Below, one piece after another: positions 61,205 to 62,770 of a stretch of DNA of 64,000 nucleotides (positions within the stretch are counted from its first letter, which is position 1; each line of letters opens with the position of its first letter). This stretch comes from Escherichia phage PinkRuby: the sequence record PP925839.1. One strand, 5' to 3'. The notes beneath the pieces were generated by a model that was given only the letters and a program-made list of their open reading frames with translations, was not told the DNA's origin and did not search any database. Both the position numbers and the translations under genes were made by a program.

Positions 61205-61470
61205 TGTTCATCCTTTAGAGTTTGATTTACAGCTCTATTATAAATCAATTCATCATTAAGCTCAGGCAAAGACTTATGATATGTAGTTCTAACTTTATTT
61301 CCTTGCATCCAGTGCTTGACGTAAATGAAACCTTGCTCTACGCATTTTTTAAAAATTCGTTCGTCTTTTTGAGCTCGGAATTCTGGATTGCATCTAAAAA
61401 ATTGATTTACGTGACCGTAATCACGTGTAGTATTACCTTCATTTTCATAAATAGTGTGAACGACAAACAT
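61201..61470 (-). CDS. hypothetical protein (30.1 position)
   Basis: 89 aa ORF. Confidence 0.55.
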   Translation of the reverse strand: MFVVHTIYENEGNTTRDYGHVNQFFRCNPEFRAQKDERIFKKCVEQGFIYVKHWMQGNKVRTTYHKSLPELNDELIYNRAVNQTLKDEQ

Positions 61471-62309
61471 TAGAATGCTCCTTGGAAAATATTATCACCA
61501 CAAGTAGGTCTATTATACAAATACTCTATTCCACCAGGTTTAATATAGTTCCATGTCTGAAACGGATGTGTCTGATATGGATGATATAGATGATTATAAG
61601 GATTAAATCCAGGAGTTCTCCAGGTAGTGTTCCAACGAAAAGAATCATTTTTAATCATCTTTTCAATTATATCTTTTATAGCTTTTTCACTATCAAAACT
61701 TTCTTTATTTTCCTTTGGTGAAAAAAGCTTATTTTCTATATCATTCCATGTATAAACTCGCTGAGCAGTTTTTGGAATATTGTCACGCTCTCCTCGCGCC
61801 ATCCAATAAACAGGAACATTTAATATTTCACTCGCATGATCGCAGTGGTGAGCGAGATCGTCAATATAACAAATTACGTTATATTTCTCTTTTGCCTTTT
61901 TAAACAACTCTTCTTTTGAAGAATCATGACCACACATCATTACTTCTGAGAATGCACCAGGAAAAAGAGCATTCAAATTAAATTGACGATTCAACAGAGC
62001 GTCAATAGAATCACCCAATGCTGTAACAGCTACAAAATTATAATCTTCTTTTAATTTATTAATTACACACAGGGCATCTTTATACGGAGACAAATAACGA
62101 ATAAAATCTGAACGATTGTATTTTTCAATTAGCTTGACACCAAGTTCTTCATCACAATCAAAGAGTTTACCTGGAGAAATAAATTTCTCATCTTGGATCA
62201 TTTTTAAAATATGTTCTAACGGAAGATTATATTTCTGAGCAAAATAAGGAAGGCCTGATTGCCAGCTTAAACATACTCCATCAATATCAGTTAAAATAGT
62301 AGGCTTCAT
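61470..62309 (-). CDS. HAD-superfamily hydrolase-like protein
   Basis: 279 aa; N-terminal LTDIDGV matches HAD motif I (DxDx[TV]); DD-containing motif later. Confidence 0.6.
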   Translation of the reverse strand: MKPTILTDIDGVCLSWQSGLPYFAQKYNLPLEHILKMIQDEKFISPGKLFDCDEELGVKLIEKYNRSDFIRYLSPYKDALCVINKLKEDYNFVAVTALGDSIDALLNRQFNLNALFPGAFSEVMMCGHDSSKEELFKKAKEKYNVICYIDDLAHHCDHASEILNVPVYWMARGERDNIPKTAQRVYTWNDIENKLFSPKENKESFDSEKAIKDIIEKMIKNDSFRWNTTWRTPGFNPYNHLYHPYQTHPFQTWNYIKPGGIEYLYNRPTCGDNIFQGAF

Positions 62310-62770
62310 AGAGAGTCTCTTAATAGGTTTAACACATCAATAAATTCAGCTTCGGTTAATATTGTATCATCTTTTGTTAGACCACTAGCCATGCTGTGCT
62401 TCAAAACTTTTCCTTTCGAGGCTTGTAATGCATCGCGAAAGCCCCTGTTTTGGAACGCTGCTTCAAAATATGCATTTGTGTATAGCTCTTTCCACGCCGG
62501 GGAGTATCTTGAAAACGGAACTCCGAGCCAGAAGAGGGTCCCACGGTCCTGAGCTCTAGCATAAGCTCGTCCAGCTTGTTGGGCAGCAAGCCCGGATAAC
62601 CCAAATATACGACGTTGCTGTTCAACATTTTTCACCTTACACCCTTGGAGGAATCCTTCGAGACCTCCAAATTGGATACCATCCATAACAAAAGGCCATT
62701 GGGCGAAATTACTTAATGCGCATGATGGCCATCTAAAATTGCTTCTTATCTCTAGCTCAGACATTTTCAA
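62306..62770 (-). CDS. NADAR (YbiA-like, DUF1768) domain protein
   Basis: 154 aa; LSNFAQWPFVMDGIQFGGLEGFLQGCKV matches the YbiA core pattern as recalled. Confidence 0.55.
   Translation of the reverse strand: MKMSELEIRSNFRWPSCALSNFAQWPFVMDGIQFGGLEGFLQGCKVKNVEQQRRIFGLSGLAAQQAGRAYARAQDRGTLFWLGVPFSRYSPAWKELYTNAYFEAAFQNRGFRDALQASKGKVLKHSMASGLTKDDTILTEAEFIDVLNLLRDSL

Follow-up and report, generated by a model that had tools for sequence, protein, structure and literature searches.

Organization of the locus

The subject of this analysis is a pair of overlapping genes, 30.3 and 30.2, in Escherichia phage PinkRuby (sequence record PP925839.1), of which a stretch of 64,000 nucleotides, here called the window, was analysed; positions in the phage refer to this stretch. 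The source is a T4-like phage (Tequatrovirus), and all genes of the region under study lie on the minus strand. A preliminary description had placed a NADAR-domain protein and a HAD-like hydrolase just upstream of DNA ligase, which is correct in the direction of transcription (30.4, 30.3, 30.2, 30.1 (DUF3045), ligase), with 30.1 standing between 30.2 and the ligase gene at 59741-61204. It had also given both open reading frames (ORFs) their proper coordinates, but it left the minus strand unstated, and the start of 30.3 has to be moved from TTG 62770 to ATG 62764. Listed from TTG, ORF 62306..62770 has 154 amino acids, and from the ATG it has 152; we take the ATG as the start because the T4 annotation begins there and the published numbering of E36 and K43 fits only that start. 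Overlapping stop and start codons chain the genes of this block together, namely ATGTCTGA for 30.4/30.3, ATGA for 30.3/30.2, TAATG for 30.2/30.1, and ATGA for 30.1/30. The features of the two genes are as follows.

62306..62764, minus strand: gene 30.3, adfN (anti-DarT factor NADAR), 152 amino acids; assigned by 97% identity to T4 gp30.3, Pfam PF08010, and predicted fold
62765..62770, minus strand: two extra codons (TTG AAA) added by the mechanical ORF call before the 30.3 ATG, as judged from the T4 annotation and the published numbering
62401..62628, minus strand: 30.3', a 75-amino-acid ORF within 30.3 in a different frame; T4 annotation, Pfam DUF2883 (4.4e-46)
61722..62309, minus strand: gene 30.2, residues 1-196, predicted HAD-superfamily phosphatase core with a helical C1 cap, closest to NT5C
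61470..61721, minus strand: gene 30.2, residues 197-279 and stop codon, C-terminal extension; delimited by the predicted local distance difference test score (pLDDT) and homologue comparison

Gene 30.3 encodes a NADAR protein

By its modelled fold, its catalytic residues, and links between hidden Markov models (HMMs) that pass through relatives, the product of 30.3 is a NADAR protein, and the earlier NADAR call was right. The NADAR/YbiA core motif that had been recognized in the ORF is present as S18-N19-F20-A21-Q22-W23-P24, followed by D28-G29, E36, Q40, and K43. Pfam files the protein under a separate family, PF08010 (Phage_30_3), which it matches over model positions 1-138 of 138 (E=4e-69, 231 bits vs a cut-off of 36). 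Its HMM link to the canonical NADAR/YbiA proteins is transitive only: 16 of 48 gp30.3 family members match the canonical NADAR model PF08719 (best 1.5e-7), and the family profile matches E. coli YbiA (2b3w) with E=0.005 over the SNF...E...Q...K block. Direct sequence searches of the 30.3 and 30.2 proteins against PDB chains gave nothing usable, and the NCBIfam search gave nothing. The AlphaFold2 model of 30.3 has a pLDDT of 92.7 and a predicted template modelling score (pTM) of 0.88, and its top three Foldseek matches were YbiA 2b3w (E 2e-4, template modelling score 0.68), the G. lovleyi NADAR 8bat, and the P. nicotianae NADAR 8bau, while the remaining PDB matches all had E>5. Among 48 homologues, E36, Q40, and H123 never vary and K43 is kept in at least 90%; the PinkRuby protein has all four.

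The closest known protein is T4 gp30.3, now called AdfN, an orthologue with 148 of 152 residues identical (97%). The two proteins agree in length, C-terminus, and E36, K43, and H123, and their genes both lie between 30.4 and 30.2; the PinkRuby protein is thus full length, with an intact C-terminal helix and no truncation. It differs from T4 AdfN by A67S, F104I, R107K, and M125I, none of which is at a residue tested by mutagenesis, and its host phage is another Tequatrovirus. More distant are the DarG1-type NADAR antitoxins and YbiA (8bat, 8bau, 2b3w; PMC11543638), which share the fold (Foldseek probability 0.97-1.00) and the SNF...E...Q...K block, although identity to PinkRuby 30.3 is only 15-17%. 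These proteins also share the published chemistry, hydrolysis of guanine-ADP-ribose (Schuller et al. 2023, PMC11543638). The third catalytic acid differs, being Glu in YbiA, Asp in the DarT-linked NADARs, and His (H123) in the phage subfamily, of which a His in the last strand is a hallmark (PMC11825919, PMC11125620, and PMC11543638 for catalytic roles). In further contrast to the DarG1-type proteins, phage 30.3 is an orphan with no adjacent DarT, and T4 AdfN does not neutralise DarT1 in uninfected cells (PMC11825919, PMC11125620).

Public data contain many close gp30.3 relatives that are short (83-126 amino acids) or fused to parts of neighbouring genes (PF11097, PF06919, PF06019). This suggests that frameshifts and other breaks in adfN are frequent in T-even relatives, in line with the report on RB69, and some of these cases may be artefacts of assembly or gene calling. 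A separate candidate, a C-terminal variant indicated by tblastn coverage of 1-144 of 152 in many Tequatrovirus records, was rejected as an alignment-end artefact, as T4 shows the same coverage and yet its C-terminus is identical by BLASTP. As for the ORF inside 30.3, the T4 annotation describes 30.3' as "internal translation, in a different reading frame". In distant homologues of 30.3, the open stretch of the +1 frame measures 34-78 codons, which is too inconsistent to decide whether 30.3' is conserved.

Published function of AdfN

The function of this gene is already known from T4, where 30.3 was renamed adfN by Johannesman et al. (2025, Nat Commun 16:1598; PMC11825919). In that work, AdfN was necessary and sufficient for escape from DarTG1: T4 and T2 phages deleted for adfN formed no plaques on DarTG1 hosts, expression of T4 adfN rescued RB69, and purified AdfN stripped ADP-ribose from DarT1-modified DNA. 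The protein was weakened by E36A, by K43A, and by an RB69-like C-terminal truncation, and it was ineffective against the thymidine-modifying DarTG2. T4 AdfN was fully active only in T-even infection, for which the authors suggest an additional phage protein (PMC11825919). Guanine de-ADP-ribosylation by T4 gp30.3 in vitro was found independently by Cihlova et al. 2024 (PMC11125620), and in a T4 transposon screen 30.3 insertions were lost on DarTG1, with a log2 fold change (log2FC) of -7.25 (bioRxiv 10.1101/2025.11.20.689424). Counter-defence against DarT-type systems, as proposed for the PinkRuby gene in the preliminary description, is therefore experimentally established for the 97%-identical T4 AdfN (PMC11825919; PMC11125620; bioRxiv 10.1101/2025.11.20.689424). 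The same function would hold for the PinkRuby allele because it has the full length and has lost none of the residues tested by mutagenesis. The core idea on the NADAR was therefore correct and already known; the function was published in 2024-2025, and PinkRuby adds only one more intact allele. Nevertheless, 30.3 is a textbook-quality case of a phage with an orphan antitoxin-like enzyme that undoes a host DNA-modifying defence.

The screen also touches the genes before 30.3 in the block. T4 30.4 insertions were mildly depleted on DarTG1 (log2FC -1.79, adjusted p 0.014; bioRxiv 10.1101/2025.11.20.689424, supplementary file 7), and 30.5 insertions had a log2FC of -3.00 that was not significant (bioRxiv 10.1101/2025.11.20.689424). 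Because the start of 30.3 lies inside the end of 30.4, the 30.4 depletion probably reflects polarity on adfN or its translational coupling to 30.4; going by the screen alone, 30.4 may still have a direct role.

Gene 30.2 as a predicted NT5C-like HAD phosphatase

ORF 61470..62309 starts with ATG and encodes 279 amino acids, with L6-T7-D8-I9-D10-G11-V12 near its N-terminus. HAD motif I (LTDIDGV) had been seen in this ORF, and it is indeed present, at residues 6-12; the HAD call was right. By its motifs and its modelled fold, gp30.2 is assigned to the HAD superfamily. The motifs are I (D8-I-D10-G-V), II (T96), III (K132), and IV (D150-D151); D8, D10, G11, and K132 are invariant in 49 homologues and T96 and D150-D151 nearly so (at least 90%), and in 35 relatives at 22-42% identity D8, D10, and D151 are still invariant and T96 and K132 nearly so. 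AlphaFold2 gave a confident model of residues 1-196, with pLDDT <50 for most of 225-279. In this model, a large helical C1 cap (residues ~16-90) is inserted after motif I of a Rossmann-like core.

Among the relatives of gp30.2, the general HAD models Hydrolase (14 of 49 close and 11 of 36 distant relatives) and HAD_2 (6 of 49 and 10 of 36) find matches, and of the specific Pfam families NT5C (PF06941) turns up most often and with the strongest matches, in 9 of the 49 close and 12 of the 36 distant relatives (best 4.2e-10). The best PDB profile match of the family is the deoxyribonucleotidase cdN (E=0.11), with DGVxxxWQSGL aligned to DGVLADFESGL. The 5'(3')-deoxyribonucleotidases cdN and mdN (NT5C PF06941; 2jao, 2i7d, 3bwv) share with gp30.2 the HAD core, the helical C1 cap, the four catalytic motifs, and the extended motif I DGVxxx[W/F][Q/E]SGL. 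They differ in that identity is 16-21%, the gp30.2 cap is longer, and gp30.2 has an extra C-terminal extension of ~80 residues with a disordered tail. In the mdN and cdN structures, the base-binding pocket is formed in part by an aromatic residue that follows the first Asp by eight positions. W16 of gp30.2, which is invariant, stands at this position; we regard this as a lead and not as a test. Some gp30.2 homologues are labelled "putative phosphatase", "5' nucleotidase", or "HAD protein" in GenBank. The family is large, with 1323 representative clusters at E<=1e-3, mostly of ~190-220 amino acids without the tail.

Members of the HAD superfamily that carry a cap act on small molecules, and those without one (C0), the PNKP phosphatase among them, act on macromolecules. 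The substrate of gp30.2 is most likely a small molecule, a (deoxy)nucleoside monophosphate, because the protein has a large helical cap and is related to NT5C. The C-terminal extension consists of one predicted helix (207-220) followed by a disordered tail rich in Trp, Tyr, and Pro. The GIEYLxxQPT sequence in this tail is conserved in homologues from Escherichia, Klebsiella, and Enterobacter phages and looks like a docking motif for some partner, while the tail is absent from homologues of ~200-220 amino acids in Acinetobacter, Aeromonas, and Slopekvirus phages. No functional study came up in literature searches on gp30.2 or on a deoxyribonucleotidase of T4-like phages. What this analysis adds concerns gp30.2, namely its fold, its probable enzyme class, and the published genetic evidence against a role in DarTG1 counter-defence. 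It is a conserved, non-essential, NT5C-like HAD phosphatase beside DNA ligase across most T4-like phages, and to know its substrate would close another gap in the "dark matter" of T4; nothing suggests that current understanding would be overturned.

Gene order of 30.3 and 30.2 across phages

A functional link between 30.3 and 30.2 is unsupported, and their adjacency is inherited T-even gene order and not a module, because 30.2 is neutral on DarTG1, most viral NADAR loci have no 30.2 nearby, the two genes appear to be separated in Yersinia phage TG1, and NADARs of non-T4 phages lack such a neighbour. In the T4 screen, 30.2 insertions on DarTG1 gave a log2FC of -0.12 (p 0.61, adjusted p 1.0, 71 TA sites), whereas 30.3 mutants were lost, and on K-12 the gene was non-essential, with 72 of 72 sites hit (bioRxiv 10.1101/2025.11.20.689424). 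Among 80 loci with a gp30.3-type NADAR in IMG/VR, a 30.2-family gene lies within 5 kb in only 22 and is absent from that distance in 58. In TG1, 30.2 lies beside ligase and alt, and the NADAR gene appears to be ~55 kb away from it if IMG/VR locus L075 is TG1. The NADARs of the non-T4 phages (L006-L010) have no 30.2-like neighbour. In contrast, the two genes are adjacent or near-adjacent in Acinetobacter phage AB-Navy4, Klebsiella phage Miro, and Aeromonas phage AsFcp_2. The ligase is a more constant neighbour of 30.2 than the NADAR, as a T4-type ligase directly follows the 30.2-family gene in 20 of the 22 loci and likewise in TG1, AB-Navy4, and Miro; in AsFcp_2, four small genes lie between 30.2 and ligase. 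The proposal that the HAD protein acts on nucleotide or ADP-ribose phosphate products of the NADAR thus found no support, T4 30.2 being dispensable on DarTG1 hosts and the adjacency being lineage-specific synteny.

Vibrio phage KVP40 (L002) offers a parallel to the pair. Its gp30.3-type NADAR gene (6007-6471) is directly followed and overlapped by the HAD/NT5C gene KVP40.0071 (6449-6961; Pfam NT5C 5.1e-11), with a similar motif I, DMDNVLVDFQSG. KVP40.0071 differs from gp30.2 in being a canonical short NT5C protein of 170 amino acids (43 bits vs a cut-off of 24.8), the relationship between the two is remote (hhalign probability 82%, E 1e-5 over 100 columns), and the KVP40 pair lies between genes 55 and 47 (neighbourhood 55, 47, 46) with no ligase nearby. 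This pair was considered as a general pattern and rejected, since a KVP40.0071-like gene close to the NADAR is missing from all 80 IMG/VR loci.

A different arrangement was observed in two metagenomic contigs (L007 and L008) from an unrelated phage with a gp30.3-type NADAR. They carry a different HAD protein (2353-2880), 1.1 kb upstream of the NADAR, with weak matches to PNKP phosphatase, acid phosphatase, and T5 dNMPase models, and a DNA ligase ~4 kb upstream of the NADAR. NADAR, HAD, and ligase genes recur loosely together there, without adjacency.

Interpretation and alternative explanations

We read the locus as the 30.4-30.3-30.2-30.1-30 early block, in which 30.3 is AdfN undoing DarT1 marks, 30.2 is an independent HAD phosphatase, and the two are neighbours by gene order; we put the probability of this reading at roughly 85%. 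In a host with the DarTG1 toxin-antitoxin system, DarT1 would ADP-ribosylate guanines in the phage DNA and replication would be blocked; AdfN, as a stand-alone NADAR, would hydrolyse the guanine-ADP-ribose bond and restore replication. For PinkRuby we infer this function because of the 97% identity, the intact catalytic residues, and the intact C-terminal helix. The product of 30.2 would be an independent, non-essential phosphatase that handles the nucleotide pool rather than ADP-ribose removal.

Several points weigh against this reading. On the side of 30.3, the function of PinkRuby AdfN is transferred from its T4 orthologue, and the PF08719 search proposed as a check in the preliminary description gave no direct match for the protein, even at E<=1. 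The supplementary table of the transposon screen (HIDEN-SEQ) was taken as the comparison of control with DarTG1 from the file index and from the 30.3 depletion. On the side of 30.2, the protein itself has no significant match in Pfam, NCBIfam, or PDB sequence searches; in the HMM check against HAD, some of its relatives match curated models and it does not, and it falls below the curated threshold of PF06941. The NT5C assignment is therefore transitive, and "NT5C-like" describes gp30.2 better than membership. As to the independence of the two genes, the 4-nt ATGA overlap suggests translational coupling, in KVP40, where the genomic surroundings differ, the NADAR gene overlaps a bona fide NT5C gene, and the separation in TG1 depends on the identity of L075.

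A bolder view of gp30.2 sees it as a large phage branch of NT5C-like nucleotidases that would work against a nucleotide-based host system, through counter-defence or sanitation of the pool, while its tail would dock it to a partner, for instance the replication or ligase machinery. We consider this unlikely; a weaker version has gp30.2 assisting AdfN under conditions outside the published screen.

The recurrent ligase neighbour raises the possibility that gp30.2 is a DNA-end 3'-phosphatase that readies nicks for ligase, as a PNKP-like end-healing partner, and a weak PHROG match to polynucleotide kinase (phrog_415, E=0.0022) points in the same direction. However, with its large C1 cap gp30.2 is more likely to act on a small molecule, and the nearest specific HMM family is NT5C and not HAD_PNKP. 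T4-like phages also already encode PseT, 30.2 is non-essential, and in AsFcp_2 its gene is parted from the ligase gene. Taken together, this role is quite improbable.

The NADAR could also act mainly elsewhere than on DarT1 damage, on ADP-ribose marks written by Alt or Mod or on soluble ADP-ribose-derived immune signals. Two alt genes stand in the early block that holds 30.3, gp30.3-type NADARs occur in ~1500 phage records, from which we infer that DarTG1 may not be the sole selective pressure, and Iyer et al. 2022 proposed that phage NADARs act preferentially on soluble ADP-ribose derivatives and remarked on their co-expression with ADP-ribosyltransferases (PMC9503650). Against this, genetics and biochemistry tie T4 AdfN to DarT1-modified DNA, the tested phage NADARs are specific for guanine-ADP-ribose and do not counter DarTG2 (PMC11825919), and T4 alt insertions had a log2FC of -0.01 on DarTG1 (bioRxiv 10.1101/2025.11.20.689424). 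NADAR activity on arginine-ADP-ribose is supported by no data. Alt-type enzymes modify proteins, and the published NADAR activity is specific for guanine-ADP-ribose, which leaves the alternative first offered for this gene, editing of phage-made ADP-ribose marks, unsupported. We regard such a main function as highly improbable.

A two-enzyme module, in which gp30.2 would process phosphorylated products after ADP-ribose release or be the T-even factor that T4 AdfN needs to be fully active, accords with the overlap of the genes, their closeness in the Acinetobacter, Klebsiella, and Aeromonas phages, the KVP40 pair with no ligase nearby, the T-even dependence of AdfN, and the nearly equal record counts of the two genes in the phage collection (1510 vs 1444), but it is the least credible reading in view of the neutral 30.2 insertions, the activity of AdfN alone on DNA in vitro, and the gene orders in IMG/VR, TG1 (if L075 is TG1), and the non-T4 phages. 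By the established chemistry of N-glycosidic ADP-ribose removal, NADAR hydrolysis gives back an intact guanine, with no phosphate end left over for processing. In particular, 30.2 as the missing T-even cofactor of AdfN was rejected, its insertions not being depleted on DarTG1 and the genes being unlinked in most viral NADAR loci.

Neighbouring genes and minor observations

The gene order around 30.3 and 30.2 is that of the annotated T4 record: alt, alt.1, 30 (DNA ligase), 30.1, 30.2, 30.3 (with internal 30.3'), and 30.4 to 30.7. A 1.8-kb query around the two genes matched 696 phage records, nearly all from Tequatrovirus-type phages of Escherichia and Shigella, with Escherichia phage ECO07P1 as the top DNA match (97.7%). 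The neighbouring features are listed below.

62757..62963, minus strand: gene 30.4, whose final 8 bases overlap the start of 30.3
61201..61470, minus strand: gene 30.1 (DUF3045), between 30.2 and ligase; Pfam PF11243 (5.6e-63)
59741..61204, minus strand: gene 30, ATP-dependent DNA ligase; Pfam PF01068 (2.4e-32), 99% identity to T4 ligase
57410..59506, minus strand: alt, ADP-ribosyltransferase, 698 amino acids; Pfam PF03496 (1.9e-37), 71% identity to T4 Alt
55349..57406, minus strand: second intact alt paralogue, 685 amino acids; Pfam PF03496 (3.1e-20)

The two ADP-ribosyltransferases mentioned in the preliminary description are these tandem alt paralogues, both intact and both with Pfam ADPrib_exo_Tox. 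T4, in contrast, has one alt gene and, where the second copy stands in PinkRuby, the short remnants alt.-1 and alt.-2, which its annotation calls an old partial duplication; PinkRuby has retained a full second copy. A promoter and terminator scan of 59400-64000 did no better than on shuffled sequence, and the count of terminator-like sites was not above that in shuffled sequence. A GC-rich palindromic hairpin, AGGGGCCGAAGCCCCT, followed by a plus-strand T-run, lies at 63461-63476 in the gap between 30.7 and 30.6.

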